The notes below the pieces were generated by a model, which saw only the letters and a program-made list of their open reading frames with translations, did no database searches and was not told the DNA's origin. 64,000 nucleotides of DNA from an uncultured virus (IMG/VR IMGVR_UViG_2061766007_000169) (lineage: Duplodnaviria > Heunggongvirae > Uroviricota > Caudoviricetes), in IMG/VR virus record IMGVR_UViG_2061766007_000169; one strand, 5' to 3'. Of this stretch, positions 8,234 through 64,000 are shown one piece after another. The stretch's first letter is position 1. The number at the start of each line of letters is the position of its first letter. A program made the position numbers and the translations under genes.

Positions 8234-8520
8234 ATGTCAGCCTCCTGTTTCAGCCAAGCCAATACGCAATCTGTGCAACTATCGTATTTGCATGGTTCTT
8301 CTTCTGCACACCACGGATAGATTTCTTCTCCGCTCAAAGTCTTTGCCAACTCATCATCCGACATTGCTCTGATGCGGTCGGCATTGGTTTGCTTCTTCTC
8401 AACCTCAAATTGAATGCAAGAACCAACCCTATAACCATGCCCTCTGCCGACATTGCACTTGTCTCCGTATTTGCATTCACGGCAATTAATATCGTTTCCA
8501 TCTGTCACAAAACCGTTCAT
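8230..8520 (-). CDS. Hypothetical phage protein
   Basis: TNADRIRAMSDDELA motif common in small phage proteins. Confidence 0.7.
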   Translation of the reverse strand: MNGFVTDGNDINCRECKYGDKCNVGRGHGYRVGSCIQFEVEKKQTNADRIRAMSDDELAKTLSGEEIYPWCAEEEPCKYDSCTDCVLAWLKQEADI

Positions 8521-8765
8521 GTTCCACCTCTCATATCAGCACCGCAGTTGGGGCAGAAGTTATAATCGAAATTAGAATTGTGAAAACCGCATTCAGAACA
8601 TTCCCCACCATTACGCCATTTCCACTCCCCATGCCTGACTTCCGCAACATCTGCGGATGGGATATTCTTGATTGCCCTAACAGGAACAGCTTCTTCTTTC
8701 AACCCTTGCGAGTAGTAATCTCTTGACAGAACAAACAAATCATTACGCTTGATGTAGTCAGCCAT
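8517..8765 (-). CDS. Zinc-ribbon phage protein
   Basis: CSECG and FCPNCGADM motifs. Confidence 0.75.
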   Translation of the reverse strand: MADYIKRNDLFVLSRDYYSQGLKEEAVPVRAIKNIPSADVAEVRHGEWKWRNGGECSECGFHNSNFDYNFCPNCGADMRGGT

Positions 8766-9123
8766 CTGTCTCTCCCTTTGGCGGCTCTGGCAGGGGCATC
8801 CATGCTTTAACTCTGCCTTTATAATAACTCCAATACGGTATGTCAGTTGTATTGCTTATAACCATTCGGTCAATTTTAACCTCATCACCGTGAATTGCAG
8901 AGTGCATATATACCGCTACCATTTCCCCAAGTTTAGGCAACCGCTCCGTCACGGAAATCCACTTCATCGGCTTTTGCAGTTCCTCTATAGCATCTGCTGC
9001 ATCACCGACTATCTTTGTCATGCACTTCACAGGATTATTTCGGTCTTCGTGGTATGGGCAATGCTCCTCGCATATACAATCATTGCATTCTCGCAAGATT
9101 TTAAGAAGTTCATCGTACTTCAT
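8758..9123 (-). CDS. DUF551-like protein
   Basis: WISVTERLP...WMPLPEPP. Confidence 0.75.
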   Translation of the reverse strand: MKYDELLKILRECNDCICEEHCPYHEDRNNPVKCMTKIVGDAADAIEELQKPMKWISVTERLPKLGEMVAVYMHSAIHGDEVKIDRMVISNTTDIPYWSYYKGRVKAWMPLPEPPKGETDG

Positions 9124-12070: not shown

Positions 12071-13162
12071 CTACAAAGAAAGGGATGTATGCCGGATTTT
12101 TTCTGCTGTAGATGCAAGCTGTTGCTCCTCGATATAGTCGGTGTAAACAGCCATCGTAATGTCCGGCGATGCGTGACCCATGAGGTACTGTGCTTCTTTC
12201 GGCTGTACCCCATTTGCGATAAGGCGTGTGCAGTAGGTGTGTCTCAACTGATGCGGATGGACGGAGAAGTCTATCTTCTTCATAGCATCCATCGTGCCGG
12301 GGCCGCCTACTGATCTGTAGGAAACAAGATCCCACATCCGGCGGAAAGAAGCTTCGGAAAGGAAATGCCCATCTCTCATGGAGAACACATACTTCGAATT
12401 GCTCTTCCTCTTCTCGGCGATCAGAACATCGTACACTTCCTGCGAGAATGGGATCGTCCGTCTTGCAGAGTTCGTCTTCATATCCTTATTGATCTCACCC
12501 TGGCGATTGTCAAGAGTGTAGACGATACTCCGGTTGACTCTCAGATATCTGTTTTCAAAGTCGATGTCATCCCACATCAGACCGAGTGCTTCGCCTTTAC
12601 GCAAACCGCAGAAGAGAACTACTACGATGAATGGGTACACCCTCGATCCTTTGGTAGCTTCAAGAAGAACTCTGCACTGATCATCTGTCAGGGATTCAAC
12701 CTTATCCGGATCTTTAGCAATCGGTCTCTTCTTGTAGGTAGGTGACTTCGGAATGATGCCGTTCTCGATAGCGAGATCGAAAAGCATTCCGGCATAAGTC
12801 AAAACTTTTTTCTGCGTGGACTTTGACAGATGTCCGAGGTGCTTGAGCATCTTATCAATATGGATAGGCTTGATATCCGTTACACGCATACAGCCAAGTT
12901 CCGGAATAAGATACCGATTGATAATGCCCTCGGTAGTTTCGATTGTTCTCTTGTGGAGATCCCAGGTGCGGTAGTAGTCAAGCCATGACTCGGCGAGTTC
13001 CGCAAAGGTAAGGGTGCTTGCTGCATCATAACCCATCGCATACATAAGCTTTGCCTTATCACGCTTGCTCTCGGCTTCTTTCTTTGTTCTGCCGGAGTAG
13101 TACTTTCGTGTACCATCCGGCAGAGTCATTGTAACCCTTACAGGTTTTTTGGCATTAGCCAT
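12071..13162 (-). CDS. int: Tyrosine integrase
   Basis: CGLRKGE (R), HQLRH (HxxR), MGH, C-terminal VY; N-terminal arm-binding and SAM-like segments. Confidence 0.93.
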   Translation of the reverse strand: MANAKKPVRVTMTLPDGTRKYYSGRTKKEAESKRDKAKLMYAMGYDAASTLTFAELAESWLDYYRTWDLHKRTIETTEGIINRYLIPELGCMRVTDIKPIHIDKMLKHLGHLSKSTQKKVLTYAGMLFDLAIENGIIPKSPTYKKRPIAKDPDKVESLTDDQCRVLLEATKGSRVYPFIVVVLFCGLRKGEALGLMWDDIDFENRYLRVNRSIVYTLDNRQGEINKDMKTNSARRTIPFSQEVYDVLIAEKRKSNSKYVFSMRDGHFLSEASFRRMWDLVSYRSVGGPGTMDAMKKIDFSVHPHQLRHTYCTRLIANGVQPKEAQYLMGHASPDITMAVYTDYIEEQQLASTAEKIRHTSLSL

Positions 13163-26393: not shown

Positions 26394-27985
26394 TTAATTA
26401 ACCAAATCACCGAAATCAAGATCAACCGGAGCGTACTCTTCACGGCTGTCATCTTCCGGAACAAGGGCGAGATTGCCTTCGCCCTGATAGACATACGATC
26501 CGAGAAGAGAATCGAACGCCGCCTTGTGCAGTATCTTCTCAAGATCGGCAGGGGATCTGAGTTTAGGACTNNNNNNNNNNATACTCCTCACGGCTGTCAT
26601 CTTCCGGAACAAGGGTGAGATTGCCTTCACCCTGATAGACATACGATCCGAGAAGAGAGTCAAACGCTGCCTTGTGCAGTATCTTCTCAAGATCGGCAGG
26701 GGATCCGAGTTTAGGACTGGTGTAGTATTGCTCCGGTTTGTATCCGGCTCTTGCAAGCTGATCGATTACAAGGTCATCATCCTTCCATGTCCCGGACGGA
26801 CGCTTACCGCGGACAAGCTTGTAGCCTTTCCATTTCTTTCCCTGCATCGCCTGGTTATAGCAATACTCACGAACATTCTTTATCCACTTCTCTGCGGTAT
26901 CGAGGAAGGGAAGTAGTTCTGCGACTTTCGCATCGGATAAGATGTCCGGACTATCGAACATATTGCCAATAACATTTAATGAGGTAAGAACATTCTCCCT
27001 GCAAATAGCTTTCACATTACAGAACTTGCAATGCTCACCAGCTTTAAACTCACCCTCACCACGCCACGCCTTTTGTGCGGCGGGTTTGATAACTTCATCT
27101 GCCCAGCAAAGCAGATCGTTCACGTACATTATGTCTTCCGAAACAGAGTCGAGTCTCGGCTGACAGATAATCATCTTTACCTGTTGAAAACTGTACAGAC
27201 TATGGAACGCATCATACGCTCCGAGTGCATAGAGACGAAGCTGATAGTTATCTTCGGCGGATACAGGTACGCCTTTGCCAAACTTCATATCGACAACGAT
27301 CAGTCCGGCATCTGACACAATCACAGCGTCGCTTGTGCCGAAACACTCTGGCACCCACTCTGACAGATCGAGTTGCTGTTCTATAAATAATTGTGTGGCC
27401 GGATCTACCCGACGCATCGAGTAGTACTCAGTAAGAACACAATCCACATAATCATCTGTAAAGCGATCAATCTCAGGAGTAATGCCGTCAATCGCNNNNN
27501 NNNNNCAGACGAAGCTGATAGTTTCCTTCAGCCGTAACAGGAACCCCTTTGCCGAACTTCAAGTCTATAACAATCAGTCCGGCATCTGATACAATCACAG
27601 CATCGCTTGTGCCAAAACACTCTGGCACCCACTCTGACAGATCGAGTTGCTGTTCTATAAATAACTGTGTGGACGGATCTACCCGACGCAGTGCGTAGTA
27701 CTCAGTAAGAACACAATCAACATAATCATCTGTAAAGCGATCAATCTCAGGAGTAATGCCGTCAATCGCTGCAACCTGGACTTTGAAGTTGAATTCATTT
27801 ATCTCACCCAATTCTTTCCGGAGTTTCAATTCGGCAAGGCTGTGAGCTCGTGTTCCTTCTTCAGCATACACGCTTGATTTGTCGCCAAACATATCACGAT
27901 ACTTCTGACACAGCCTGCCGGACGGCGGACACATAACCCACCTGCGCGCGGCAGAGGGGGATAAAGTCGCATGGATGCTAGGCAT
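26394..27985 (-). CDS. DUF2800-like Cas4/PD-(D/E)xK nuclease (gapped)
   Basis: HA.LSPS.A.RW..CP, EGT.AH, FGTSD, D.KFGKG, QLRLYALG, C.FC. Confidence 0.82.
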
Positions 27986-28528
27986 TTAAATAACCTCTCC
28001 TAAACTATTGACATAGGCATAGGCTCTTCCGTTAAGTACATTACCAATAGCGCCTTTAACAACGCCATACATCTTCGCCAGTTGGGAATAGCTTAGTCCT
28101 TCTTCATGGAGTCTCCTAATATCCGCTGCATCTTTTGCAGATAACTTTGATCGAGTTTGTCTTCCCTTAATCCGGACAACATCTCTTTTATTTTCCGATA
28201 CGGAATCATAACGGAGATTACAAACCCTATTGTCATGAGAGTCTCCATTAGTATGGCACACTTGCATCCCATCCGGCCTAGTTCCTAAAAACGCTAAGGC
28301 TACAAGGGAGTGTACATAAAAGGTCTTTCTATTTTCTTTATGGCCGATGTCCACTTGATAGTAGTTTCCTTTATATGGGTTATTACGTGCCTTTAGAATA
28401 TGACCCTTCCTATGCTCTACCACACCGTTACATCTAATAATGTCTTGCGCTTTTACTCTCACGTTACCTAAGTCAGATACTTGGTAATCCTCATACCCTG
28501 GAATATCCTTCCAGACTTCTTCCATCAA
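27986..28528 (-). mobile_element. NUMOD4-HNH homing endonuclease
   Basis: WKDIPGYEDYQVSDLGNVR (NUMOD4), VH.LVA.AF, VCH.NG...DN...NL (HNH). Confidence 0.88.
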
Positions 28529-40429: not shown

Positions 40430-40833
40430 TGTTCATTCTCCTCTTCTGAATAGTCAATGGGGATTGCGATGTAAACTGTCTCGTCAAGCTCGATGTCATA
40501 TCCGCCACCATTATGATCCGGATCGTACCTCAGATCGACAGTGTAGATATTGTAATCCCACACGTTCTTGTCCTGACGGCAGTCCAGGCGAGTGGCATAG
40601 ATTCCGGTGACCTCATAGTCAAACATGAATCGGTCTCCGATCTCCGGAAGCTTCCTCATGATCTCCGCATCAGCATAGATACGCTGTTTTGTCCGTAGGT
40701 TTTCACTTAAGCAGAATGTGATCTCGCTCATCTTTAATCTCCTTTCATTTTTAATTTGGACGAGAGCAGACGATCTGCTCTCCGCTTTGAGCCTAACCAA
40801 CTGTTTATACTCGCTCAAACGAGTTAATTCCAT
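40426..40833 (-). CDS. Early protein (true start may be the internal MSEI)
   Basis: ORF in early cluster. Confidence 0.55.
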   Translation of the reverse strand: MELTRLSEYKQLVRLKAESRSSALVQIKNERRLKMSEITFCLSENLRTKQRIYADAEIMRKLPEIGDRFMFDYEVTGIYATRLDCRQDKNVWDYNIYTVDLRYDPDHNGGGYDIELDETVYIAIPIDYSEEENEQ

Positions 40834-46596: not shown

Positions 46597-46857
46597 ATGG
46601 AACTGTTGATGAGTTTGCTCGGCGTACTGCTTGGTGTTGGTCTTGTTGCTTGCGGTTTCCTTTTAGGTAAACACGTATACGCTCCTAAGTCTCTGCCTGT
46701 TCCGGAACTGTCTGAAGAGGAAAAGACAAAGATAAGGGAAGAGCGTGAGCAGCTTATCGCAGAACAGAAAGCCTTTCGCGCTTTGATGGACTATAACGCT
46801 GACATGGCGTATGGCATCAATGACTCCGCTCTTCCAATTCAAAAGGGGAGTGGGTGA
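46597..46857 (+). CDS. Membrane-anchored small protein
   Basis: N-terminal transmembrane helix. Confidence 0.65.
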   Translation: MELLMSLLGVLLGVGLVACGFLLGKHVYAPKSLPVPELSEEEKTKIREEREQLIAEQKAFRALMDYNADMAYGINDSALPIQKGSG

Positions 46858-46861
46858 TTGG

Positions 46862-47602
46862 ATGGAGGGTGGCTACTCCGTTTATAAGCACGTATTTCCA
46901 AACGGAAAACAATATGTTGGGTACACTTCTAAAGATCCAAAGGATAGATGGAAGAATGGAAGTGGGTATGGTACTCAGTCCGTATATAGAGCAATTAAGA
47001 AATACGGATGGGATAATATTGAGCCTATTGTTATCCGGAGCGGATTAAGTGAAGAAGACGCTTTAATGTTGGAGAGAAAGCTTATAAAGCATTACGATCT
47101 TTGTAATAGAGACAAGGGGTATAATTTCCATCCAGGTGGTAAGGCATCTCCATCTGCTTGTATGGAAGCTAGAAGAAAGATAAGTGAATGGCGAAAGCAG
47201 AATCAGTTTGGGGAAAAGAACCCAATGTTTGGGAAGCACATATCTGATGAAAATAAAGCACTTATATCTTCGGTAAATACTGGGCGGAAACATACGGAAG
47301 AAGAGAGACAAAAGATGCGTGATAGGCATTGGGATGTCTCCGGTGTTAATAATCCGCATTATGGTGTTCCTTGTTCAGAAGCTACCAAAGAAAAGATTAG
47401 AGAGTCGCAGAGGAAAAGGATGCGACCGGTTAATCAGTATACATTGGGTGGAGAATTCATCGCCTCCTTCGAAAGTATCCATGAAGCTGTTAGGCGTACT
47501 GGCGTATGCAAGTCGGGCATTATGGATTGTTGCAAAAAAGACATTAAATATACGCATGGCTTTGTGTTTAGGTATGCGGATGAAGAGGGTGGTAGTGGTT
47601 GA
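46862..47602 (+). mobile_element. Free-standing GIY-YIG homing endonuclease
   Basis: VYKHVFPNGKQYVGYT, NPMFGKH and HTEEERQKM NUMOD3, VNQYTL NUMOD1. Confidence 0.85.
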
Positions 47603-49853: not shown

Positions 49854-51098
49854 ATGCCGAATGTATATATGGATTCGGTTCCGGTAGTGCAGACTATCGG
49901 TCCGAATGGGATCGGGGTGTATCCTCCGGTTCCGATTGAGAAGGTAGAGAAGATAGATGGATCGGTTCGTGAAATGAAGGAGCTTACTTCTCCTGCTAGG
50001 CGTCTTCCGAATCCTATCGGCGAGATTGATGGGCTGATTATGCATACGAAGGATGAGGCTTGGCAGAAGTCCGGCGAGATCATTACGCTCGAGAAGGATG
50101 TGGAAGATCTTAAGAAGTACGCAGATATTAAATCTCCAGCGGATCTGAAGGCCATTGCTGCAAGCGGAAAGGCCAGAGAGTATTTTGATATCGGAGATAT
50201 CATTTATATTCCGTGGACAAACTATACACCGAGTACACCGGTTACTTATTACGTTCCGTTTGCGGTTGTGCATTTTGGCGACGCATATGATGAGGACGGT
50301 GTCAAACATGAGAACCCAATCTGGTTAATGTCGGTTTATGCACAGCCGGAGGAGATTCCATTTGATGCTGCTGAAGATACTGTAGTTGATCTTACGAGCG
50401 AACCGAATGCCCTTGAGGGTTGGTACTACTGGGGTCTTACTGGTGCGTCTTATACAGCTTTGAATCTTTCCGCTGGTACTGCAATTCCGGATACTTACGA
50501 TAGCGTTCATAAGTGCGGAGTGAATAGCCTTGATGTTCTTCGATATGGGTATAATCGATGGAAGGTCTCTGCTTATAGGCAGTGGCTTAACTCCGATGCC
50601 GCGAAGAATGAGAACTGGTGGGAGAGTCAGCATACAGGGGATATCGCTCCTACGACTACGTATACGAATAAACCTGGATGGCTGTATGGCTTTGCTCCAG
50701 AGTGGAGAGAAATTTTCCAGAAAGTGAAAGTGGACACCGCGGCGAATACTGTAACAGACAGTGGAGTTACGGACACTACTTATGATTATTTCTTCCTGCC
50801 GTCCTTGGAGCAGATGTATGGCTCTCCGCAGGCGGCTGGTGTTGAAGGGGATTACTGGGAGTACTGGAAAGAAGAGACCGGACTCGATGCTCCGTCTAAT
50901 GGGTCTGCAAGCGATACGAATGATGCGAGAAAGATTCCTCCGGTAACGAATTTCCATGCCTCCGCCGTGTACTGCCGTTTGCGTTCCGCGTATCGCTCCT
51001 ACTCGAGCACTGTGTGGAATGTCAGCGCCGCGGGATATCTCGGCAACGGCGTTGCGTACGCCGCGTATAGGGCGCAGCCGGCTTGTGTCATCTTTTAA
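49854..51098 (+). CDS. DGR target protein with C-terminal variable region (CLec/DUF6273-like)
   Basis: RW..S..RQWLN, FFLPS..Q and RLRSA motifs; last codons match the TR except at adenines. Confidence 0.9.
   Translation: MPNVYMDSVPVVQTIGPNGIGVYPPVPIEKVEKIDGSVREMKELTSPARRLPNPIGEIDGLIMHTKDEAWQKSGEIITLEKDVEDLKKYADIKSPADLKAIAASGKAREYFDIGDIIYIPWTNYTPSTPVTYYVPFAVVHFGDAYDEDGVKHENPIWLMSVYAQPEEIPFDAAEDTVVDLTSEPNALEGWYYWGLTGASYTALNLSAGTAIPDTYDSVHKCGVNSLDVLRYGYNRWKVSAYRQWLNSDAAKNENWWESQHTGDIAPTTTYTNKPGWLYGFAPEWREIFQKVKVDTAANTVTDSGVTDTTYDYFFLPSLEQMYGSPQAAGVEGDYWEYWKEETGLDAPSNGSASDTNDARKIPPVTNFHASAVYCRLRSAYRSYSSTVWNVSAAGYLGNGVAYAAYRAQPACVIF
50964..51088 (+). repeat. DGR variable repeat (VR)
   Basis: 125-bp ungapped match to 51590-51714; 18 mismatches, all opposite TR adenines. 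Confidence 0.97.
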
Positions 51099-51870: not shown

Positions 51871-52911
51871 ATGGATGATGGGGCTGTCGTAGGGTATGAT
51901 GCCTTGTGGGATTCGATGATGAAATGCAAGTGCGGTGTTATGTGGAAATGTTCTGTAGCGAATTTCGTTCTGAATGGCGTGAGAGAAATCGGAAGACTTT
52001 CGGACGAGTTGCTTAACGGAGAATATCACGAGAGACCGCATAAGTATTTTACAATAACCAGTCCAAAGAAGAGAGACATTATGAGCATCTCTTTTCGTGA
52101 TAGAGTTTATCAAAGAAGCTTGAACGATGTTGCGATATACCCAGTTATGATTCGGTCTTTCATCCATGACAACGGTGCGTGTCAGAAAGGGAAAGGAACT
52201 GATTTTGCTAGGGATAGGTTTAAATGCCACCTGCAGAGGTTCTATCGAAAACACGGCAGAAATGGGTATGTTCTTAAGCTGGATATCCGTGGATATTATC
52301 CGAATATGCGGCATGACGCGGTTAAGGATAAGTTTCGCAGATATCTTGATGAGAATGTATATGATAAAGCATCGGCTATTCTGGATAGCTTTCCGGGTGA
52401 CGTTGGTTTTAATCCGGGCAGTCAGATTATTCAGATAGCTGGTATCTCACTTCTTGATGACCTTGATCATTACGTTAAGGAGCGGTTAAGGGTGAAGTAC
52501 TATGTTCGCTACATGGATGACATTCTGATTATAGGAGAATCGAAAGAGGAGCTTCTTAAGATTAAGGAAGTGATTCGTAAAGAACTTTTTAAAATCGGAT
52601 TTGAACTTCATGAAGAGAAGAGCAAAGTAATATCGCTCTTAAAGGAAGTACTGTTCCTAGGTTTTAAGTATAGGATTACGGAGACCGGGAGAGTTCTTAT
52701 GATAGTCGATCCCGCCCGCGTAAGAGCCGAACGGAAGAAGTTATTTAGGCTGGTAGGTTTGGCGAAACAAGGAAAAATATCGAAAGAGAAAGTAGACCAG
52801 TGCTACCAGAGTTGGCGCAGTCATGCGCTGAAAGGAAATTCGTGGAAGCTTATTCAAAGGATGGATAGGTATTATCGCAATTTATGGAGGAAAGATACCA
52901 ATGGGTTTTGA
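51871..52911 (+). CDS. DGR reverse transcriptase
   Basis: PKKR.I, FRDRVYQ, GKG, KLDIRGYY, YVRYMDD, FLGF; 346 aa; no maturase or endonuclease tail. Confidence 0.95.
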   Translation: MDDGAVVGYDALWDSMMKCKCGVMWKCSVANFVLNGVREIGRLSDELLNGEYHERPHKYFTITSPKKRDIMSISFRDRVYQRSLNDVAIYPVMIRSFIHDNGACQKGKGTDFARDRFKCHLQRFYRKHGRNGYVLKLDIRGYYPNMRHDAVKDKFRRYLDENVYDKASAILDSFPGDVGFNPGSQIIQIAGISLLDDLDHYVKERLRVKYYVRYMDDILIIGESKEELLKIKEVIRKELFKIGFELHEEKSKVISLLKEVLFLGFKYRITETGRVLMIVDPARVRAERKKLFRLVGLAKQGKISKEKVDQCYQSWRSHALKGNSWKLIQRMDRYYRNLWRKDTNGF

Positions 52912-53274: not shown

Positions 53275-53346
53275 TGCGGGGTAGAGGAGCGGTAACCTTG
53301 TGGGCCTCATACACCCAAGACGCCGGTTCGAATCCGGCCCCCGCTA
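53275..53346 (+). tRNA. tRNA-Met(CAT), initiator-like
   Basis: Unpaired 1:72, GCGGGG/CCCCGC acceptor, GAGG/CCTT D-stem, GGG/CCC anticodon stem with CAT at 53308-53310, GCCGG-TTCGAAT-CCGGC T-arm; no encoded CCA. Confidence 0.85.
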
Positions 53347-54697: not shown

Positions 54698-56754
54698 ATG
54701 GCAGGCGGAATTAATCTCGCTACTAAATATTCTCCCGTCGTAGACGAGAGATGGTGACAGAGTTGCCCACTACGGCAGTAATGTCGTAGATGAATCGACC
54801 AAAATCGGTGAAAGCTAAATGAGTGAAGAATATTTAATCTATAAGCATACCTCACCAAGTAATAAAGTTTACATCGGAATAACAAGCCAAACACCGGAGA
54901 AGCGGTGGCATGGCGGAGCGAACTATAGCGGTCAGCCTTATTTCTATAACGCTATTCGTAAGTATGGATGGGATAATTTTAAGCACGATATTATCCGATC
55001 CGGTCTAACGGAAGAGGAAGCTAAAATAGCGGAGAGAAAATTAATTAAGAGGTATGACAGTCGTAATAGGGAATTCGGTTATAATGCCACATCTGGTGGG
55101 GATATAAGTCCTATGAAGAGTATGCAAGCGAGAGCGAAAAGCTCGGCTTCTCATAAGGGGAAAGCGATGCTTCCTCAGACGAGGGCAGCTCTTCTTAATA
55201 GTAGGCTTGGTATTTCTCTTTCCGAGGATCATAAGTCTAAAATATCATCTTCCATTTCAGAACTTTGGAAAGACCCTGAGTATAGGAAGAGGAATGTTTC
55301 TAAGCATCTCGTTAGATCTGTAGAACAATACAGTATGGACGGGTCTTTTGTTGCTCGATATACTAGCTTGAAAGAAGCAGATCTATCTACGGGTGTTGAC
55401 TATAGGAACATACAGGCTTGCTGTAAGGGGAGAAAAAGACAAGCAGGTGGTTTTATTTGGAAGTATTCTTCTTCACAAGCTAATACCGAGGTAAATACAG
55501 AAACTAAAGAGTCTGTATCACTGTAACGAGTAGGGATTGAACCTGTTAACACAGAATAAAATATCCCCAAGAGTGGTCGATATCCGTTACAATTCCTTTC
55601 TTGTATCGGATAAAAATGTACTCTGAACTTATGGGAAACCATAAGAGCTATCGGATAAAGAGCCGATAGGCTAACAAATTGATCTCGAATCCCAGGCAGT
55701 TATGGCTCTGGGTAATAAATATGATTTCACCGGAGAAAAGACCGTAAAAGTTTATAGTATCCCCATCAGCGTGATGAAGGACTACTCCCGCACCGGCATT
55801 GCTCGTTATGGTTCTCCGGACGATCTCACTCGTAATGTCCAGACCCTGACGATCACTAAGGACAGGGCATTTAATTTCATAATTGACAAGGGAGACAAAC
55901 TCCAGTCTGAGATGGTCTCCGATGCAGGTCAGGCTCTTGCCCGCCAGCTTCGTGAAGTTGTTGTTCCGGAATTTGACAGCTACTGCTTCGCCAAGTTCGC
56001 ACAGGCCGCGAAAGACGCAGGTGGTTATGCAACTACGGCTGTGACCGCTTCCAACGCTTATGCCTGCTTCCTTGCCGCTATGGAATATCTGGGTGACCAC
56101 AATGTTCCTGAAGCCGGTCGTGTAGCTTTCTGCACTTATAAGTTTGCCAACTTTATGATGCAGGACCCGGCCTTTATGAAGTACAGCGATAAGTCCCAGG
56201 AGATGGTTGTCAAGGGTATCCTTGGCGAAGTCGATGGGTGCAAGATCGTTAAAGTTCCTTCTAGCCGTCTCCCTGCCGGAGCAGCGTTTATTCTCGCTCA
56301 TGCAGAAGCCGCTGTCGGCCCGAAACAGCTTGAAGACTATCGTATTCATGATGACCCTCCTGGAATCTCCGGCTGGCTTGTTGAAGGCAGGACGATCTAC
56401 GACTGTTTCGTTCTCAACGAGAAGCGTTATGCTCTCTACTACCACGGCGGACAGACCGTGTTCAAGGTGCTTGATGCTATGAGTGCTGCAACCGACACTG
56501 GCAAGACTACTCTTATTATCAATGCGCAGCTTGATGCTCCCACCAATAAGTGGTACTACATGACCGCAACTTCCGCTGCAGGTCTGACGGCTATCACTTA
56601 TGGTACTGCGATCACTACCGGAAACTGGACTCAGCTTACGGCTAATGCCACTGAGATCACTCCGACCGCGAACCATGTTATCGCTCGTATCGTAGAGGTC
56701 GATAGCGCCAATAAGCCGATCGCATTTGCGGATGTTCCGCTGAATATCGGCTGA
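54698..56754 (+). CDS. Major capsid protein, spliced: exon 1 54698-54755, exon 2 55682-56754 (376 aa)
   Basis: Joined frame MAGGINLATKYSPVVDERW-Y-LESQAVMALGN...; DRAF.F.IDK, VVPEFD.Y, EGR.IYD.FVL capsid motifs. Confidence 0.85.
54756..55681 (+). mobile_element. Group I intron in the major capsid gene
   Basis: P1 GGTGAC/GTTGCC with U.G at the splice site; P2 with GTAA loop; P3 ATCGACC/GGTCGAT; P4 TCGGT/ACCGA; P7 AGAGT/ACTCT; P8 and P9 hairpins; terminal G; removal restores frame. Confidence 0.88.
54819..55526 (+). CDS. Intron-encoded GIY-YIG homing endonuclease
   Basis: IYKHTSPSNKVYIGIT, GYN, NUMOD3/NUMOD1 segments. Confidence 0.88.
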   Translation: MSEEYLIYKHTSPSNKVYIGITSQTPEKRWHGGANYSGQPYFYNAIRKYGWDNFKHDIIRSGLTEEEAKIAERKLIKRYDSRNREFGYNATSGGDISPMKSMQARAKSSASHKGKAMLPQTRAALLNSRLGISLSEDHKSKISSSISELWKDPEYRKRNVSKHLVRSVEQYSMDGSFVARYTSLKEADLSTGVDYRNIQACCKGRKRQAGGFIWKYSSSQANTEVNTETKESVSL

Positions 56755-56770
56755 TAGTTTTTAACTTTAT

Positions 56771-56808
56771 AGAGGGATTACTGTAATGGTAATCCCTCTA
56801 ATTTCTTA
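56771..56808 (+). terminator. Terminator after the capsid gene
   Basis: AGAGGGATTAC/GTAATCCCTCT 11-bp stem. Confidence 0.7.
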
Positions 56809-56829
56809 TGTTAAGGAGAAGAGAGATAA

Positions 56830-57465
56830 ATGACATACGGCGAATTAAAGAACAGAGTACTCCAGTATATCTTCTCCTATTCCATAGCTGGAGACGAAAT
56901 TCAATTGTCTTATAACAATCAGGAAGACTATGTGAAACAGATCCCGGGTCTTTTGAACTCTGCTCAAACTTACATTTATCAGGTGAAGCATTTTGAAGCA
57001 GCTGTTAAATTAAGCGATCTGGCGAGGGAAGACTTCGGAGACAGCGATATGTATATTCTTCCGGATGATTGCCTTAAGATGAAACCCGGTTTGATTCTCC
57101 CACAGGGCGGTGGATTCAGACCACAGTTTGTACGTTTTAACAACTATAAACTCTTTGGGGGAAATAAGCTTCTTGTTCCGAAAGGAATGGGCGATAAGCT
57201 TCTTATGGAATATTGGAAGCGCAGTGTTCCTCTTCCGGAGAATATTCCGGACAGTTATGTTTTGAAAAATACGGACGAGGTGAATGAACTTCTTCCGTTC
57301 TATATTGCAGCATTCGTTGTGATGTATGACGATGCTTTCCGATACTCCGCACTATATAATGAATTTGAAACCAGACTTCAGAGACTCGCTCCGAATCCGA
57401 CCTATGTCGAGGAGAACGAGGTCTTTGATGTCTATATGGGGTTTAATCCGGCATGGTGGTGTTGA
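56830..57465 (+). CDS. Probable head-tail adaptor
   Basis: MTYGELK start, Y.LP.D motif, size and position after the capsid gene. Confidence 0.6.
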   Translation: MTYGELKNRVLQYIFSYSIAGDEIQLSYNNQEDYVKQIPGLLNSAQTYIYQVKHFEAAVKLSDLAREDFGDSDMYILPDDCLKMKPGLILPQGGGFRPQFVRFNNYKLFGGNKLLVPKGMGDKLLMEYWKRSVPLPENIPDSYVLKNTDEVNELLPFYIAAFVVMYDDAFRYSALYNEFETRLQRLAPNPTYVEENEVFDVYMGFNPAWWC

Positions 57466-57468
57466 GTA

Positions 57469-59772
57469 ATGGCATATGTTAACCTTAGTAAAATGCCCTC
57501 TGCCAAGAGGGAATATGTTACTAGTTTTGATACACTCGCCGGTGGTCTGAATCTGCAGGAACTGGACTATCGTATAGATAACAACGAGAGTCCGGAGATG
57601 AAGAATCTGCTCTGGCGAGAGGGCGTTCTTAGCTGCCGTGATGGTCAGGTATGGGTAAACGGCACTGACGGCGGAACATTCTATACTGCTTACGAGCGGC
57701 TGTGGAATGGCTGTATGTTTGCCCATTCCGGTGACAGTATCTATGCCGTTGATACAGACGGCACGAGGACTCTTCTGTACACCGCCTCCGATACGATGGA
57801 TGTCCGCGGAAAATTCTTTCCGTATAATGAGAAGCTGTATTATAAGACAGAAGGGCATTACGTTTGTATTGAGTATAACAATGGTGCTTTCTCTGCCAGT
57901 GATGTAGAGGGATATGTTCCGGTAACTTACATTAACTGTTCTCCGCTTAACGGCTCAGGTACTATCTACCAGCCTGAGAACAGAATAAGTTCGAAGAAGA
58001 CTCTCTGGTACAATGCTTCGTATGTATTAACTCCGTCAGTATCCGGAGACTTCAGCGTGTCTGTTGAGGAGACATACTTCCGGATCATGTGCAATAATGT
58101 TCCAGGTACGTATGTATTTACCTATACAACGGAGTGGAAGCTGAACGGAAATGCGGTAGATCCTCTCGCCTATGGAATAGCGATTGGCGGAACTCCGGTA
58201 AACGGAGATACGATTACCATCTATTATGCGTTTTTGAACAGATACTATCTTCCTTTGGCCGGTCTTAATATAGACAACATTACGGTTGACGGTGTTACGA
58301 AAGTACAGGAGAGCCTAGAGTATGAGGTAAGCACTCTGGGTGTTACCGCAACGCTAGATAAAGAAACGTGGAGAAGTTACGTAACAGTTTCCGGCACATA
58401 TGCTTTTGTTTATGACTATGATAATGATGTCTGGACTCTTAATGGCTCTTCCGTTTCGCTTGCCACATATGGTATCGCGGTTGTCGGTAGTCCGGTTGAT
58501 CAGACAACGATTACTGTGGAATATGTGCGAGGGGATTACTATTTAGATAATGACGGCGCTTCTGTTATCTTTTATGATGCGCCCCCTGTTACCTATCCGG
58601 AAACGAATAATACTGTTCATGTTACATATTCTGCGGATAATGACACAGCGTATGAAAACATTATGGATTGCCGATATGCTGCTGTCTATGGCGGAACCGG
58701 GGCGTTGTGTATCGTAATGGCCGGGAGCAAGACCCAGCCTAATGCCTACTTCTGGAATGGTCAGACGAGTATCGCTATGGACGCTTCGTACTTTCCAATG
58801 ACACAGTATCAGCTCGCCGGTGACTCGGTTGATCCTATTACCGGATTCGGTAAGCAGCAAGGGTATCTTATTATTTTTAAAAAAGGATCTGTCGGCAGAA
58901 CGACACTCGGTACAGAAACTGTTGATGAAAGAATGACGATTGATCTTCCGTATGTCGGCATTAACTCCAAGATCGGCTGTGATCTTCCGCATACTATACA
59001 GCTTGTGGAGAATAACCTGGTATGGTGCAACACAGTAAGAGGAGTTCATTTCCTGGCGAACACATCCGCTGCATACGAAAACAATGTTGTCTGTCTTTCC
59101 GATAAGGTTAATGACTCCGGAAACTCGTGGAATCCCGGATTGCTCTATGATGTTCGTAATGTGGATGCCGAAGTGGTTGTATCTCACGATGATGAGAAAC
59201 GATACTGGCTTGTGGCGAATGGTCATGCGTGGTTGTGGGATTACTTCGTAAGTCGGTATACGGATCCGTCATGGTTTTATTTTGACAATATAAATGGAAG
59301 AGCCTTTATCCAGGAGCATGATGATGTGTGGCACTTCGATTCCAGAAGCAGACTCACGCACATGGAGCGGTGCTATTATGACTACGATCCGATAGGAAGT
59401 TCCGGTGCTATAGATAAGGTGTTCCGTTTTGCTACGCAGTTCTTCGGAACGTATGACAATCTTAAGACGGTAAACTCCGTGATTATAAATACAAGGTCTG
59501 ATACGAACTCTATTATTAGTCTTCGGTATCTGACAGACTACGAAACAAGGGATGACCTGACTCCGCTTGAAGCTGTGTCATGGAGACTTGTTCCGAGGAA
59601 TTTAACATATCGTAATTTGACCGGCTCCGGTTTTGCTCATGTGTTCAGGAGAAAACCGCACTGCCGTAGAATAAAATTCTTTACTATGCGGCTTGAGAAT
59701 AACAGTCCGTCTATGGATATGTCTATTGTCTCAGCACAGATTTATTATACATTCCAAGGGAGGCAGAGATAA
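57469..59772 (+). CDS. Probable tail nozzle/stabilisation protein (P22 gp10-like)
   Basis: GGLN...ESP.M.N start, beta-rich 767 aa, position after the adaptor. Confidence 0.7.
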   Translation: MAYVNLSKMPSAKREYVTSFDTLAGGLNLQELDYRIDNNESPEMKNLLWREGVLSCRDGQVWVNGTDGGTFYTAYERLWNGCMFAHSGDSIYAVDTDGTRTLLYTASDTMDVRGKFFPYNEKLYYKTEGHYVCIEYNNGAFSASDVEGYVPVTYINCSPLNGSGTIYQPENRISSKKTLWYNASYVLTPSVSGDFSVSVEETYFRIMCNNVPGTYVFTYTTEWKLNGNAVDPLAYGIAIGGTPVNGDTITIYYAFLNRYYLPLAGLNIDNITVDGVTKVQESLEYEVSTLGVTATLDKETWRSYVTVSGTYAFVYDYDNDVWTLNGSSVSLATYGIAVVGSPVDQTTITVEYVRGDYYLDNDGASVIFYDAPPVTYPETNNTVHVTYSADNDTAYENIMDCRYAAVYGGTGALCIVMAGSKTQPNAYFWNGQTSIAMDASYFPMTQYQLAGDSVDPITGFGKQQGYLIIFKKGSVGRTTLGTETVDERMTIDLPYVGINSKIGCDLPHTIQLVENNLVWCNTVRGVHFLANTSAAYENNVVCLSDKVNDSGNSWNPGLLYDVRNVDAEVVVSHDDEKRYWLVANGHAWLWDYFVSRYTDPSWFYFDNINGRAFIQEHDDVWHFDSRSRLTHMERCYYDYDPIGSSGAIDKVFRFATQFFGTYDNLKTVNSVIINTRSDTNSIISLRYLTDYETRDDLTPLEAVSWRLVPRNLTYRNLTGSGFAHVFRRKPHCRRIKFFTMRLENNSPSMDMSIVSAQIYYTFQGRQR

Positions 59773-60650
59773 TGAGCCTTACCCAAATGGCTTTTGACAG
59801 AGACTGGACAAATCCGGTTGATTTTCCTACGCACGAGACGCAGGAAACCAAAGTACGTGAGGATATACAGTATCTGTTCAACAGCATAAGAGATCAGTTT
59901 AATAACTTTCTTTCAAATGAATTCGTAGCGGCTAATATGTCATTTGCTCCTACCCCAGACAATATCGAGCAAACCAACGTACAGGATGCTATTGAATATG
60001 TGTTTTCTCAGATACAGGAAGCCTATTCCGGATCTATACCGGATGGCGCTGTAACGGAGTCAAAGATTCATACCGGGGCGGTATCTACAAGTAAACTCGC
60101 TGATGGTGCTGTTACAGAAGATAAGATAGCAGATGGGGCGGTAACTGGAGATAAGATAGCTGCGAATGCTATATCCGGCGAGAGTTTTGCTCCGAATTCT
60201 ATTCCGGCCGGTAAACTTGGATCGCAGGCGGTCGGTACAGATAATTTATCCAACAACTGCGTTACATCCGGTAAGCTTGCAAATAAGGCGGTAATTACTG
60301 CCAGACTTGACGACCTTGCTGTTACTACGGATAAGCTTGGGGATGGGAGTGTAGCTGAAGGGAAACTAGCTACCGCTCTTGCTACTAAGATAAATGGTAA
60401 GCAGCCACAGCATACGGAAGTTACTATAACTTTGTCAGCGAATGCTTCTTCGTGGAGCGATGTTGCTGCTACAGGAGTTACGGCTACGAATCTCGTGTTT
60501 GCTAGTCCGAACGAAGAGAGTGATGACTACTTCGTTCAATGGACGAACCATGGAGTGCGGATGTATTCACAGGGTGCTGGCAAAGTCTCATTTAAGGCGA
60601 ACTCCAATATAACCGCTGCAATCAAAGTTAATCTTGCAATATTCGATTAA
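59772..60650 (+). CDS. Tail fibre-like protein with 10-residue repeats
   Basis: Tandem (D)GAVT..K(I/L)A repeats. Confidence 0.65.
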   Translation: MSLTQMAFDRDWTNPVDFPTHETQETKVREDIQYLFNSIRDQFNNFLSNEFVAANMSFAPTPDNIEQTNVQDAIEYVFSQIQEAYSGSIPDGAVTESKIHTGAVSTSKLADGAVTEDKIADGAVTGDKIAANAISGESFAPNSIPAGKLGSQAVGTDNLSNNCVTSGKLANKAVITARLDDLAVTTDKLGDGSVAEGKLATALATKINGKQPQHTEVTITLSANASSWSDVAATGVTATNLVFASPNEESDDYFVQWTNHGVRMYSQGAGKVSFKANSNITAAIKVNLAIFD

Positions 60651-60653
60651 GAG

Positions 60654-60998
60654 GTGTCAGCCATGGTTAATCTTGCGTTCGCCATCCTTGGACAGAAGTT
60701 GACTCTTCTTACTCCGACTAGATTCGTGTCCGGTACTTTGAATGCAACTACTGCCCGGTTTGATTTTCATTCTTCAGAGTGGGATGAAGCGGGAAAAACT
60801 GTATATTTCAAAAACTATGATACTGAGGAAGAACTGTCTTTTGTTTTGATAAACGATGGTATCACTACTGACAGAGGGCTGGATTTTGCTCCCGGTGTTT
60901 GGAGTGTGTATCTTGTTGGGGAGATACGAGAGGGTGAAGAAGTTTTGAATCGGTTTACTACTGAAAGCGTTACTTTTAAAGTAGTTGCCCCAGATTAA
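60654..60998 (+). CDS. Small tail-associated beta protein (BppU-N-like)
   Basis: F.F.S.EW...KTV.F motif. Confidence 0.5.
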   Translation: MSAMVNLAFAILGQKLTLLTPTRFVSGTLNATTARFDFHSSEWDEAGKTVYFKNYDTEEELSFVLINDGITTDRGLDFAPGVWSVYLVGEIREGEEVLNRFTTESVTFKVVAPD

Positions 60999-61019
60999 AG
61001 AGAATAGGAGAGATATGTT

Positions 61020-61223
61020 ATGAGAACTCTTATGAGTAGGTTGCTCGCCGTTGAAAGCAGTGGGCAGGTATGCTACGTGGAATTAAGCGGTGATAGCGAT
61101 GAAACAAAACCGACGAGTGGTATAGCGGACGGTTCTATATTTACGGAGAGCGATACCGGGGATGTTTATCTTTTTAATGAAGCTAGCGGGGATTGGGTTA
61201 AGCAATTTTCGCTTCAGACTTAA
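61020..61223 (+). CDS. Small tail-associated protein
   Basis: KPT.GI.DGS.F.E.DTG.VY.FNE motif. Confidence 0.6.
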   Translation: MRTLMSRLLAVESSGQVCYVELSGDSDETKPTSGIADGSIFTESDTGDVYLFNEASGDWVKQFSLQT

Positions 61224-61235
61224 GGGAGTTAGAGC

Positions 61236-62876
61236 ATGAGTATTAATCGAGATTTCGTGTCTGGCTACGGAGCAGGCAAAGCTTCAAAAACAAGTCAGGA
61301 TATTATCAATGAAGTCGACGATTGGCTTGAAGATAATATCGCACAGGAAACAGGGTACGTTCTTGACCGCACCCTTTCAATGGAAAATGCAGCTGCCCCT
61401 GCCGACATGGTTGGTGATTTAAAGTCTGCTTTTGACATTGAAGAACATAAGAGCCTTAATCTTCTTGATCCTGATGAAGTAGAACAGGGATATTATTGGG
61501 TAGATGGGTGGCACTCAAGCGGTTCTTATGTTAATACTGGATTTATCGAACTTGAAGCAAATAAAACATATACAATGCAGTACGGTGCTTCTACGGTTTC
61601 AGCAGGAAGACAAAAAGACTCTGCAAGATTTGTAGTGTATTTTGCTGATGATAAAACAACAGTAAAAGGAAGCGCAACATATTCCACAGAATTGACACTT
61701 CCTGACGGTGCAAAATATGTTGTTGCTTCTTATAATGTTGTAAGTGTTCAAACATTTCTTTCTGATAATCGTTCTTTCGTTGAGGGAACAACATTACTTG
61801 ACTATATTGAATATTTCCCACCTTACACATCAAAAATACTAAAATCCGAGTGCAATAATGACCCACATATTCAATCTATAGTAAATCAGACTATTGCAAA
61901 TGAATCTGAAAAGCTTATATTCATAGCAACATCTGATTCTCTTTCATCAAATACAAATCTAATCTGTTGCGATTACTCCAACAATAAAAAGAATGAATAT
62001 ATTGAGTTAACGGCATACTTTTCAACATTCGATGAATTGACAATATCTCACGGAAAAGGTTCTCATATGGGTGGATATATAAAAATAACATCGACAAAAA
62101 TTCAAATATATTCTAATGAAACATTTATAGAAGAATTTGAACATGGTTTAACTCTATCAGATTTTATTAACGTAATTATTTACACAAAGAATAATTCAGA
62201 TTGCAGGTCATCAATTACCATCATGACAGCAGGTGGCGATTATACAGCAGAAACAACACGGTATTATGGCATTAGGGGTGCTGTTCTGTGCAATGCAAAT
62301 TTCGCAATGACAAACGTAAAGATTAAATATACCGTAAACGATGCAAAAGAAGATGTTTGGGTATTTGGTGATTCGTATATTTCTCTTGGTGATCCTAACA
62401 GATGGGCAACGCAATTGGTTTCATCGGGTCATAAGAAACTACTGTTGGATGGATGGGGTGGCGCAATGTCAGAAAATGTGTACCCTGTTGTAGAATATTT
62501 TGGCAATATTACAAAACCTAAATACATTGTATGGTGTTTGGGAATGAATGATGGCGATAATAATGCTATAAATTCTGCATGGAAATCGTGCGTTGATAAT
62601 CTACTTGAATATTGCGAAACAAAAGGAATTATACCTATTCTTGCTACAATACCAAATGTTCCTAACATTGATAACACTTATAAAAACGCTTATGTAAAAT
62701 CTTTGAGCGTTCGATACGTAGATTTTGCTAAGGCTGTCAACGCAGAAAATGCAGGAGCAACGTGGTACGCAGGTATGCTTTCTAGTGATAACACACATCC
62801 AACTGCACTTGGGGCAAAAGCATTGATGAGACAGTTTCTGCTTGATGTTCCCGAAGTGCTTTTCGCTGAAGAGTAA
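61236..62876 (+). CDS. Tailspike-like protein with C-terminal SGNH/GDSL hydrolase
   Basis: FGDS block I, GGA block II, GMND block III, DNTHP block V; N-terminal D.TLS...AA.A..VGDLKSA anchor motif. Confidence 0.8.
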   Translation: MSINRDFVSGYGAGKASKTSQDIINEVDDWLEDNIAQETGYVLDRTLSMENAAAPADMVGDLKSAFDIEEHKSLNLLDPDEVEQGYYWVDGWHSSGSYVNTGFIELEANKTYTMQYGASTVSAGRQKDSARFVVYFADDKTTVKGSATYSTELTLPDGAKYVVASYNVVSVQTFLSDNRSFVEGTTLLDYIEYFPPYTSKILKSECNNDPHIQSIVNQTIANESEKLIFIATSDSLSSNTNLICCDYSNNKKNEYIELTAYFSTFDELTISHGKGSHMGGYIKITSTKIQIYSNETFIEEFEHGLTLSDFINVIIYTKNNSDCRSSITIMTAGGDYTAETTRYYGIRGAVLCNANFAMTNVKIKYTVNDAKEDVWVFGDSYISLGDPNRWATQLVSSGHKKLLLDGWGGAMSENVYPVVEYFGNITKPKYIVWCLGMNDGDNNAINSAWKSCVDNLLEYCETKGIIPILATIPNVPNIDNTYKNAYVKSLSVRYVDFAKAVNAENAGATWYAGMLSSDNTHPTALGAKALMRQFLLDVPEVLFAEE

Positions 62877-63135
62877 GCTAAAGGAAACCTTAAATAACTA
62901 CCAATAACCACTAGTGGGCAACTTTGATTCACTTTCGGACAGAGCCGTTCAAGCCTCTCGACGATGCTGATATACGAACGGACTTTTAAGAGTCTTGCAG
63001 AGGACTATAAACCGCTGTATAGGGGTAAGACACCCCGGCACAAACTGCATCGGCTCAGTTCCAAATGACAGATGCCTGCATCAGTCGTAGTTTTACAACC
63101 GATATTTAAAGGAAAAAAAAGAAGAGGGGTTACCC

Positions 63136-63321
63136 TCAATAACCTCTCTTCTTGAGATACTCATCGAGTGCTTTTTGGATAGTCCATGATCTATTGCGTT
63201 CTTCCTCTTTCATGTACTTTTCCAATCTCTCAATGAGTGACGGTGGCAATGTGATGTTGTATTTGGTATAACCACCTGTTTCCTCGATCCCACGGAGAGA
63301 TCGTCCTCCGTTGATACCCAT
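63136..63321 (-). CDS. Ribbon-helix-helix (CopG-like) regulator
   Basis: YNITLPPSLIERLEKY...NRSWTIQKALDEYL; GGAGG RBS. Confidence 0.8.
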   Translation of the reverse strand: MGINGGRSLRGIEETGGYTKYNITLPPSLIERLEKYMKEEERNRSWTIQKALDEYLKKRGY

Positions 63322-63364
63322 GTAGCATCACCTCCACCTACTAGTGTACCACAATCTGTCAATG

Positions 63365-63394
63365 TAGGACAGAAGAGGACAGTATAGGACAGTA
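63365..63394. promoter_or_regulatory. Three AGGACAG direct repeats upstream of the RHH gene
   Basis: About one-helical-turn spacing, typical of RHH operators. Confidence 0.5.
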
Positions 63395-63458
63395 ATTAGA
63401 CATACCTAACTTTGTCCGGAAACTTTAAGTTACTAAAAGCATAATAAAATCAGGAGGA

Positions 63459-63680
63459 TTATTCCTCCTGATTATTCGGAATCCAAGATAAGAGATCCCC
63501 TGGTTGGCATTGGCATAGTTCACATATTTTATCGATTGTATCTGTCGTGATTGGGTCTCCGTGACGGAGCCGATCTATTGTGCTGCTTGCAATTATTTTT
63601 TCTTTTGTGAGTCGATAGGCAGACCATCCGCAATCAGATAACTTACCGAGGATGTTATTAAAAGCAATCAGTAATACCAC
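63459..63680 (-). CDS. Cro/C1-type HTH regulator
   Basis: STIDRLRHG..IT..TIDKICELCQCQPGDLL. Confidence 0.8.
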   Translation of the reverse strand: MVLLIAFNNILGKLSDCGWSAYRLTKEKIIASSTIDRLRHGDPITTDTIDKICELCQCQPGDLLSWIPNNQEE

Positions 63681-63693
63681 CTCCTTCTCCTTT

Positions 63694-63788
63694 ATTATAT
63701 CAAAAATTTTTTCTTAGTCAACCCCCAAAAAGGACTTGACACATAGTCCTATAAAGGATTATAATGCTTTTTAGAAAGGGGTTGACTA
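63694..63788. promoter_or_regulatory. Back-to-back sigma-A promoters with an 11-bp inverted repeat
   Basis: Rightward TTGACA-18-TATAAT; leftward TTGACT-16-TATAAT; TAGTCAACCCC (63715-63725) / GGGGTTGACTA (63778-63788). Confidence 0.7.
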
Positions 63789-63791
63789 TGA

Positions 63792-64000
63792 ATGTCTATT
63801 GTAGATAAACAGACGTTTGCAACAGAATTGCGTGAGAGATTGAGCGATAAACTGACATTAAAAGACATAGAATCTGTTGTCGGTGAACTCACGGATCAAA
63901 TGGCGTACTATGAAATGGAGCGCAGAGGGGATGATGCATTTCAAAAGGATTTTAACGAAATGCTAAATATCTTCTGCGACACGAAACGGATTGAGGGAAG
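63792..64000 (+). CDS. N-terminus of a probable second tyrosine recombinase (truncated by window end)
   Basis: MSIVDKQTF...LNIFCDTKRIEG; F...K..EG resembles the start of an integrase SAM-like domain; catalytic part not visible. Confidence 0.5.
   Translation, partial: MSIVDKQTFATELRERLSDKLTLKDIESVVGELTDQMAYYEMERRGDDAFQKDFNEMLNIFCDTKRIEG

Follow-up and report, generated by a model that had tools for sequence, protein, structure and literature searches.

We examined the right-hand end of the tail-gene region in a 64,000-nucleotide (nt) stretch of DNA from an uncultured virus (IMG/VR record IMGVR_UViG_2061766007_000169), this whole stretch being referred to below as the window. A tail-fibre gene is followed there by a leader-like non-coding stretch, genes for a ribbon-helix-helix (RHH) and a helix-turn-helix (HTH) regulator, and the start of a gene for an Xer-like tyrosine recombinase. 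An earlier note, made from the sequence alone, had proposed that short palindromic sites and this recombinase form an array that swaps receptor-binding C-termini onto a fixed fibre anchor. We found four joints, named sites A to D, that set apart the C-terminal module of the fibre, the leader-like stretch and an RHH unit complete in itself. Each joint is a full or half copy of a single element some 32 bp long, in which left and right arms of 13 nt each stand around a 6-nt centre. The undivided element occurs in two places: in a relative of the window from another sample (X6), where the anchor is joined to the HTH-recombinase flank, and beside the HTH-recombinase pair of the metagenome contig L006. 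DNA near-identical to the window was found in runs labelled bovine gut or bovine metagenome.

The fibre gene (61236–62876, + strand; an open reading frame (ORF) of 546 aa with 459 homologues) encodes a widely shared anchor, ending in VGDLKSA, that is fused to an exchangeable module of lectin-like and SGNH-esterase domains; the 292-aa protein encoded upstream of it matches tail-fibre PHROGs. The anchor (61236–61429, + strand, residues 1–65) was delimited by the end of homology, by conservation and by the structure model. Alignments with 119 whole-fibre homologues started at query residues 1–42 (22 proteins), 43–56 (16), 57–67 (28), 68–187 (13) or 188–255 (40). A search with residues 1–70 alone gave 103 proteins that share the anchor and carry SGNH, GDPD, metallophosphoesterase, collagen, beta-helix, GH32/43, sialate-esterase or M14 C-termini. 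The anchor alignment stopped at residues 61–70 in 57 of 101 anchor-bearing proteins, most often at 66–67, so that the fixed anchor with varied C-termini described in the earlier note was borne out, together with its placing of the swap point, and of the homologue breakpoints, at DLKSA. Conservation in the 101 anchors was V59 100, G60 101, D61 87, L62 82, K63 83, S64 67 and A65 71, and residue 66 was L, I, F or V, with F in only 17. Because residue 66 varies, the right half of the palindrome first proposed for this joint (CTTTT, the Ala-Phe codons) is not conserved, whereas its left half is. The 15 bases that encode VGDLK (GTT GGT GAT TTA AAG) are identical in the window and in the viral contigs L014 and L016 (5 of 5 codons); other residues shared among the three anchors use the same codon in 6 of 24, 8 of 25 and 10 of 24 cases (25–42%). 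The L015 locus has the anchor but reads VGVMNS at the joint, and neither site A nor site B is present in it. Use of the TTA and AAG codons in L001, tried as a test for constraint on the DNA, was uninformative.

The C-terminal module (61430–62876, + strand) was recognised by its GC content, Pfam and fold matches and a structure model. Its GC content is 0.352, against 0.448 for the anchor and 0.45 for the window, and CCGG, which occurs on average every 156 nt in the window, is absent between 61160 and 63034, which agrees with the AT-rich shift and the CCGG-free stretch pointed out earlier. The fibre model (predicted local distance difference test, pLDDT, 89) is poorly defined up to residue 65 and confident from residue 66 onward, with predicted beta-sandwiches at residues 66–205 and 227–367 and a predicted SGNH esterase at 374–546. 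Residues 376–531 match SGNH families in Pfam (PF00657, 24.1 bits, cut-off 23.6; PF13472, 32.1 bits, just under its 32.9), the blocks FGDSY, GMND and DNTHP are present, and S380, G436, N438, D518 and H521 are invariant across 45 homologues; by profile and catalytic blocks the fibre C-terminus is a predicted SGNH/GDSL hydrolase. Fold matches of the module were to carbohydrate esterases and to the gp63.1 tail fibre of phage G7C (4qnl), and residues 374–539 are 30–32% identical to tail fibres of the crAss001 group. These fibres likewise have an SGNH domain at their end, whereas their anchor and middle domains differ from those of the window fibre. In L001 a module 57% identical to that of the window stands behind a different N-terminus.

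Site A (61411–61429, + strand) comprises the left arm (61411–61423) and the centre GTCTGC, and lies in frame in the sequence encoding VGDLKSA; L014 and L016 have this left arm letter for letter, and L006 agrees with it at 12 of 13 positions. Site B (62870–62901, + strand) is a degenerate full site that spans the fibre stop codon, with the centre GGAAAC and a right arm agreeing at 9 of 13 positions. Site C (63098–63116, + strand) consists of a left-arm-like sequence (8/13) and the centre GGAAAA, and site D (63405–63436, + strand) of the centre GGAAAC and the 13-nt right arm (63424–63436), which is matched 13/13 by L006 R2 and 11/13 by L006 R1. Among window 13-mers, 0.11% score at least 9/13 against the right arm and 0.016% at least 10/13. 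The 3′ end of the module is alike in the window, L014 and L001, with a stop codon, an A-rich stretch and then GGAAAC or GGACAC: after its fibre stop L014 has the centre GGACAC and a right arm of 10/13, and after its module L001 has GGACAC and then unrelated DNA. The short sites from which the earlier note had started were all found where it placed them, namely TAAAG-TCTG-CTTTT at 61420–61433, in frame as L-K-S-A-F; TAAAG-GAAA-CCTTA at 62879–62892, beginning 3 nt past the TAA stop; the half-sites TAAAGGAAA at 63107–63115 and GGAAACTTT at 63419–63427; and a 15 of 18 match between 62883–62900 and 63418–63435. As palindromes they held in part: they belong to the larger 13-6-13 dyad, and the CTTTT half drops out for want of conservation.

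Contigs of four runs (X1, X5, X6 and X9, of which X6 is a run from another study) were aligned to the window at 88% likeness, and contig breakpoints in X1, X6 and X9 fell on sites A, B, C and D. A 1060-nt contig of X6 matched 61347–61429 (83 letters) and, after one extra letter, 63425–64000 (576 letters), so that 1995 nt were skipped; in this form the anchor ORF would stop three codons past DLKSA. A 1215-nt contig of X9 matched 60969–61433 and was unlike the window thereafter; another contig of X9 matched 62880–62917, had 215 nt skipped or replaced, matched again over 63133–63423 and ended there. In X1, which may be the sample from which the window came, a contig of 38,285 nt covers the window from about 54.5 kb and extends about 28.8 kb beyond it, and a second contig diverged at 63112. 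Because breakpoints are common across 56–64 kb, single coincidences of this kind are weak; the X6 joint, with both ends on sites, is the strong case. The stretch 61874–62674 was uncovered in X5 and X9 at this likeness, which carries no evidential weight. Within the module, 61777–61790 was touched by an abundant unrelated contig in all four runs, with a depth spike in the bin 61607–61873; loose ends were alike on both sides of 61777–61790, which is probably a short shared word and not phage DNA.

L006 carries a recombinase 65% identical to P0137, the 328-aa protein that matches the window's recombinase fragment (see below). An HTH protein 56% identical to that of the window is encoded beside the recombinase gene in L006 and in L007. 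The L006 composite has on one strand a left arm (12/13), a 6-nt centre (5 bases of which differ from the window) and a right arm (13/13); it lies 270 nt from the HTH gene, on the opposite strand, and is arranged as in the X6 joint. The right-arm 13-mer is the longest word common to the non-coding DNA of the window locus and that of L006 (P 0.007–0.02), a length reached by 2 of 300 shuffles and by 6 of 300 random window stretches. When compared with the reverse complement of the right arm, the left arm agrees at 10 of 13 positions in the window and at 9 of 13 in L006 R2. Since the inverted arms agree at 10 of 13 positions around a 6-nt centre, the element is a 13-6-13 dyad, which is the layout of the core sites of Xer, Cre and Flp-type enzymes; two inverted arms about a centre of 6–8 bp give it, as judged from the letters, the architecture expected of a core-type site. 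In another copy within L006, the centre and a right arm (11/13) are joined to a different left side. At L006 96–247, two 23-nt direct repeats, in which the right arm and a GGAG are contained, lie on either side of a 27-codon hydrophobic ORF; unlike the HTH-recombinase part of the contig, this repeat part is AT-rich.

The window ends at 64000 and cuts the recombinase ORF after 69 codons (63792–64000, + strand). These 69 residues are 97% identical to P0137, which has Phage_integrase (PF00589) and SAM-like domains. A full catalytic set can be read in P0137 (R189, K213, H275, R278, H303 and Y312), and its R-K-H-R-H-Y residues and Phage_integrase fold mark it as a predicted tyrosine recombinase; the probable recombinase with a divergent HTH gene that had been noted here was thereby borne out, the catalytic residues to be looked for being present in P0137. 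The best solved relative of P0137 is an XerC-like protein (E 5e-31); its score with the XerA-type model is 216.1 bits, against a cut-off of 220, and the XerC and XerD models are far below their cut-offs. A canonical phage integrase with Phage_integrase, SAM_3 and Phage_int_M domains is encoded at 12074–13162 (− strand), where it adjoins an AAA_25 protein, and the phage therefore has two tyrosine recombinases. Species genomes held only distant Xer relatives (27–36% identity, loci L002–L005). Viral contigs held no exact stretches of the window and no relatives of the 69-aa fragment, A1, P0137 or a conserved 114-aa neighbour; metagenome contigs likewise held no relative of the 114-aa neighbour, and the DNA of 60600–64000 had no match among phage records. 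Six of the 27 phage-record recombinase matches were inspected for context. An Xer-like gene stands after the last tail gene and ahead of the lysis genes in L007, TPELB_ph1, phiCp-D and L011, and in L007 it is followed directly by endolysin and holin genes.

The dyad is most simply read as a recombination site, which would account for its being conserved beside homologous HTH-recombinase pairs, split around 1995 bp in the window and matched at the module ends of three phages. Site-specific exchange at it, the tail genes ending in a junction zone of cassette type, is a plausible reading of these sequences that we place somewhat short of an even chance. The element would be a core-type site at which a tyrosine recombinase acts; the likeliest enzyme is the Xer-like one encoded next to it, whose strong promoter would be controlled by the divergent HTH regulator. 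Units would be inserted and excised at the boundary of the centre and the right arm, the first-placed module would be read in frame onto the anchor, and later units (the leader and the RHH gene) would be carried as accessory cargo. All of the junctions can be written as crossovers at the centre/right-arm boundary, and the X6 form would then be the recombination product of an A-type and a B-type site. That this recombinase catalyses the exchanges is something we infer from the sequence.

Several observations weigh against site-specific exchange. The cross-sample joints are assembled contigs, with one contig for each joint, and the site model was built on only three to five DNA loci. As for alternative junctions, which the earlier note had proposed to look for, the X6 deletion joint (61429/63425) is one, and neither circles nor minority junctions were seen in the contigs of X1, X5, X6 and X9. 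The window has a single good copy of each arm, site A being without a recognisable right arm (5/13) and site D without a left arm (2/13). The centres of A (GTCTGC) and of D and B (GGAAAC) differ, and classical two-strand exchange is therefore not expected. No Xer-like gene is present in the 8.3 kb of L014 or the 17.5 kb of L001 that were available, both of which have the joints, and in phiCs5676-1 and L012 the Xer-like relative is in the early/replication region and not by the tail genes. Counts within the window did not bear out a motif more frequent than chance: TAAAGN4CTTTA with at most one mismatch occurs 5 times against 2.22 expected (5 being reached by 7 of 100 shuffles), the refined core pattern occurs twice against 1.52 expected, and a repeat scan of 3.1 kb returned many repeats of like quality. 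On internal statistics alone the finding would fail; the sites are lifted above chance because all four coincide with breakpoints in other samples, in other phages and in protein homologues.

Homologous or microhomology recombination at conserved linkers accounts for the protein and codon data equally well. Co-infecting phages would cross over in the VGDLK DNA and in the stretch after the stop codon, and the Xer-like enzyme would serve otherwise, for example in multimer resolution. DNA identity confined to the junctions is the trace expected of recent crossovers, the L014 and L001 joints lie away from any Xer-like gene, mosaic breakpoints are frequent across 56–64 kb, and the phage carries recombination functions of its own, an Enc34-type single-stranded DNA-binding protein and a DUF2800/PD-(D/E)XK nuclease. 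A precedent exists in polymorphic toxins, the C-termini of which diversify by recombination with stand-alone cassettes, as PMC3482391 describes. Linker exchange leaves unexplained, however, why the linkers form an inverted repeat around 6 bp (10/13), why the arms recur in L006 (12/13 and 13/13) amid flanks that cannot be aligned, how the anchor and the flank were joined in X6 with only about 4 nt of shared sequence, and why the element adjoins HTH-recombinase pairs in the window, X6 and L006; we regard it as a serious rival, though a rather less likely account of the locus than site-specific exchange. Even if the recombinase is unrelated to the joints, two results stand: an anchor bounded by VGDLKSA in about 100 fibres, and the conservation of its last 15 bases as DNA. 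The bounded anchor and the 15 bases are useful markers for annotating receptor-binding proteins.

A different division of the locus is suggested by L014, where the spacer between the fibre and endolysin genes is homologous to window 62991–63112, which includes the 3′ half of the leader-like stretch (62902–63097, + strand). The homology stops at site C. Measured against L014, the window thus has its RHH, HTH and recombinase genes as an insert that separates the leader from the lysis genes. The HTH-recombinase pair could be a compact integrative element in its own right, directed to TTTAAAG-type sequences where fibre genes end; the intact site of X6 and L006 would then simply mark the junction at which its left end is attached, and it would have had no part in moving the fibre module. 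Compared with L014, the three genes are inserted just after the left-arm-like sequence of site C, the same flank abuts site A in X6, and the L007 recombinase gene directly precedes endolysin, all of which fit an integrative element. We consider it improbable, since it leaves unexplained the site-B-type full sites after the fibre stops in the window and L014 and the module boundaries in L001; its right end would lie beyond the end of the window at 64000, and after the L007 recombinase gene no clear second junction was seen by eye.

The other arrangement to be weighed against exchange at the dyad is inversion, for which there is a published precedent. Rin, according to PMC6109161 and PMC8778435, forms a shufflon in Bifidobacterium and Eggerthella prophages; the former source describes a phage-encoded XerD-like tyrosine recombinase that has no arm-binding domain, is encoded beside a receptor-binding protein gene, and works by inversion of several Rv segments at an 11-bp site lying between them. 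Rin and the window have in common an Xer-type recombinase that is without an arm-binding domain and encoded beside the receptor-binding protein gene, a constant N-terminus with variable C-termini, short crossover sites at the junction and a separate canonical integrase elsewhere in the genome (12074–13162 in the window). They differ in that the window has a single C-terminal module, its other units being a leader-like stretch and a regulator gene, and in that its natural variant is the presence or absence of 1995 bp. A Rin-like switch or shufflon acting between site A and an inverted site, so as to switch or silence the fibre C-terminus, would be in keeping with the inverted pair formed by the left arm (61411–61425) and the right arm (63422–63436; repeat I24, 80% complementary), with the opposite orientation of the L006 sites relative to the recombinase gene, with an hsdS shufflon among the nearest relatives of the enzyme, and with the Bifidobacterium prophages as covered in PMC6109161. 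It is nonetheless very improbable: there is no minus-strand alternative C-terminal segment within 61430–63790, an inversion as read from the sequence would do no more than truncate the anchor, the variant observed in nature is a deletion, and the gene after the L007 recombinase is endolysin. The tail-adjacent relatives inspected also showed no inverted alternative C-termini, the phage collection held no close relatives of phiCp-D and TPELB_ph1 for an inversion comparison, and repeat scans of L008, L009 and L011 found no convincing inversion repeats. The shufflon-like array of the earlier note is thus abandoned, because inverted alternative C-termini, like inverted full sites, are not visible in the window to 64000.

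The hsdS shufflons, which make type I restriction-modification systems phase-variable, resemble the window in having an Xer-like recombinase (41% identity), an HTH_26 gene nearby and sites in frame at coding ends, and differ in the target gene family and in having multiple inverted sites in place of the split direct joints of the window. The example is L010 (41% identity over 271 aa), the best phage-record match of the recombinase, which lies amid hsdS segments with an HTH_26 gene nearby and has a 15-nt site four times, in both orientations, in frame at the ends of coding segments. Its function as an hsdS shufflon is suggested by the layout. The L010 locus spans 5557–8974 of MT835621.1, an unannotated record of a ‘Bacteriophage sp.’, where three hsdS segments lie around the Xer-like recombinase gene.

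Exchange at the dyad, to return to it, could extend to a phage counterpart of the integron, in which an Xer-type recombinase silenced by the HTH regulator captures and releases receptor-binding modules as cassettes at the dyad site; we offer this tentatively and think it rather unlikely. The left arm would then encode the last conserved residues of the anchor, so that any module captured is translated in frame with it; regulators, leaders and possible anti-defence RNAs would use the same joints, and the pool of cassettes would consist of the many anchor-bearing proteins whose enzymatic C-termini are unrelated. The window would resemble integrons in having a recombinase gene beside a primary site, serial insertion of units at that site and a first unit expressed from the platform, and an ‘empty’ platform is known from a relative of the window. 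They differ in that the sites of the window are short double-strand dyads (about 32 bp) and not folded attC sites, and its first unit is an in-frame protein domain and not a whole gene. P0137 falls far short of the integron-integrase models (TIGR02249, 56.4 bits against 265; NF011946, 39.4 bits against 435), and the integron-like array of the earlier note is, in the strict sense of an integron, not supported.

Polymorphic toxins such as CdiA and Rhs displace their C-termini through homologous recombination, the partners being orphan cassettes of their own genome. As at the window joint, a short conserved peptide motif, also conserved as DNA, marks the point of the C-terminal swap; orphan cassettes are present there, whereas no orphan modules were seen in the window, which has a dyad site and a recombinase instead. 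The RHH unit resembles a phage moron in having its own terminator, upstream repeats and a place between late genes, and differs in that its borders are the short joints that also border the fibre module. Among open-access papers and preprints we found no description of such an arrangement, whether as Xer/dif fibre cassettes or as an integron-like fibre system; it is probably a new variant of recombinase-linked receptor-binding diversification, the closest published system being the Rin shufflon. Receptor-binding modules set the host range of gut and rumen phages, and their movement is mostly ascribed to an undefined ‘mosaicism’. If the reading is true, a site of about 32 bp and a dedicated recombinase would give a testable mechanism for module exchange, a means of spotting exchangeable modules in metagenomic data and a natural tool with which to retarget phages of laboratory strains, and the layout may enable phages of this kind to exchange host-recognition modules in cassette form.

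The units between the fibre and the recombinase gene were as follows. That the sites delimit the module, an RNA-like unit and the RHH gene was confirmed as to the units; the RNA structure was weak, the fold z-score of the leader-like stretch being −3.65 with the RHH terminator included and −1.57 without it, and 15 of 200 shuffles folding as well. A hairpin at 62945–62982 covers the whole abiF RNA model (RF03085) with all pairs formed, at 23.8 bits against a gathering score of 37 (E 0.52 and 0.079); the threshold is missed, and there is no abiF-type gene nearby. The abiF-motif RNAs neutralise AbiF toxins in trans, according to the RCd22 paper (10.1101/2025.04.15.648962), and for this reason a role of the leader as an orphan, antitoxin-like decoy RNA may be taken as a lead only. 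A 35-codon basic ORF (62964–63071, + strand) lies within the leader-like stretch, and no ribosome-binding site was visible before it by eye.

The RHH gene (63136–63321, − strand, 61 aa) matches PF01402 (27.8 bits against 20.5) and phrog_3180, an Arc-like repressor, and its product is a predicted regulator of the Arc/CopG type by profile. Its intrinsic terminator (63119–63153, − strand) was found as inverted repeat I22 and by a terminator scan. Upstream of the gene, three AGGACAG direct repeats at 10-nt spacing (63366–63392), read from the sequence, have the look of an operator. The HTH_26 regulator gene (63459–63680, − strand, 73 aa; Pfam E 2e-12) has a terminator at 63448–63473. Between it and the recombinase gene are back-to-back consensus promoters (63694–63765; hexamer matches 12/12 and 11/12), reading leftward for the HTH and rightward for the recombinase and flanked by TTGAC-type half-sites (inverted repeat I12); the promoter region of L006 is similarly laid out, as judged by eye. 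An invertible promoter between 63711–63725 and 63778–63792 was entertained and rejected, as these repeats read better as operator half-sites around the back-to-back promoters.

Elsewhere the window encodes a terminase, a P22-like portal, an SU10-type adaptor, a reverse transcriptase of the kind found in diversity-generating retroelements (DGR), homing endonucleases and the canonical integrase. It contains 1423 masked bases, as 33 runs of N between 3547 and 53481, and none in 56000–64000. The DUF2800/PD-(D/E)XK nuclease gene is apparently split into ORFs at 27491–27985 and 26566–27447 (− strand), and an HNH/NUMOD4 endonuclease gene (27989–28528, − strand) adjoins it; GIY-YIG endonuclease genes lie in the structural region at 46811–47599 and 54819–55523. 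A DUF6273 protein is encoded at 49854–51095, and the DGR-type reverse transcriptase (RVT_1) at 51871–52908 (+ strand) is followed by a tRNA-Met gene at 53275–53346 (+ strand). A Pistol self-cleaving ribozyme (66.8 bits against a gathering score of 34.5, E 5.7e-10) lies at 40756–40824 (− strand), amid small early genes.

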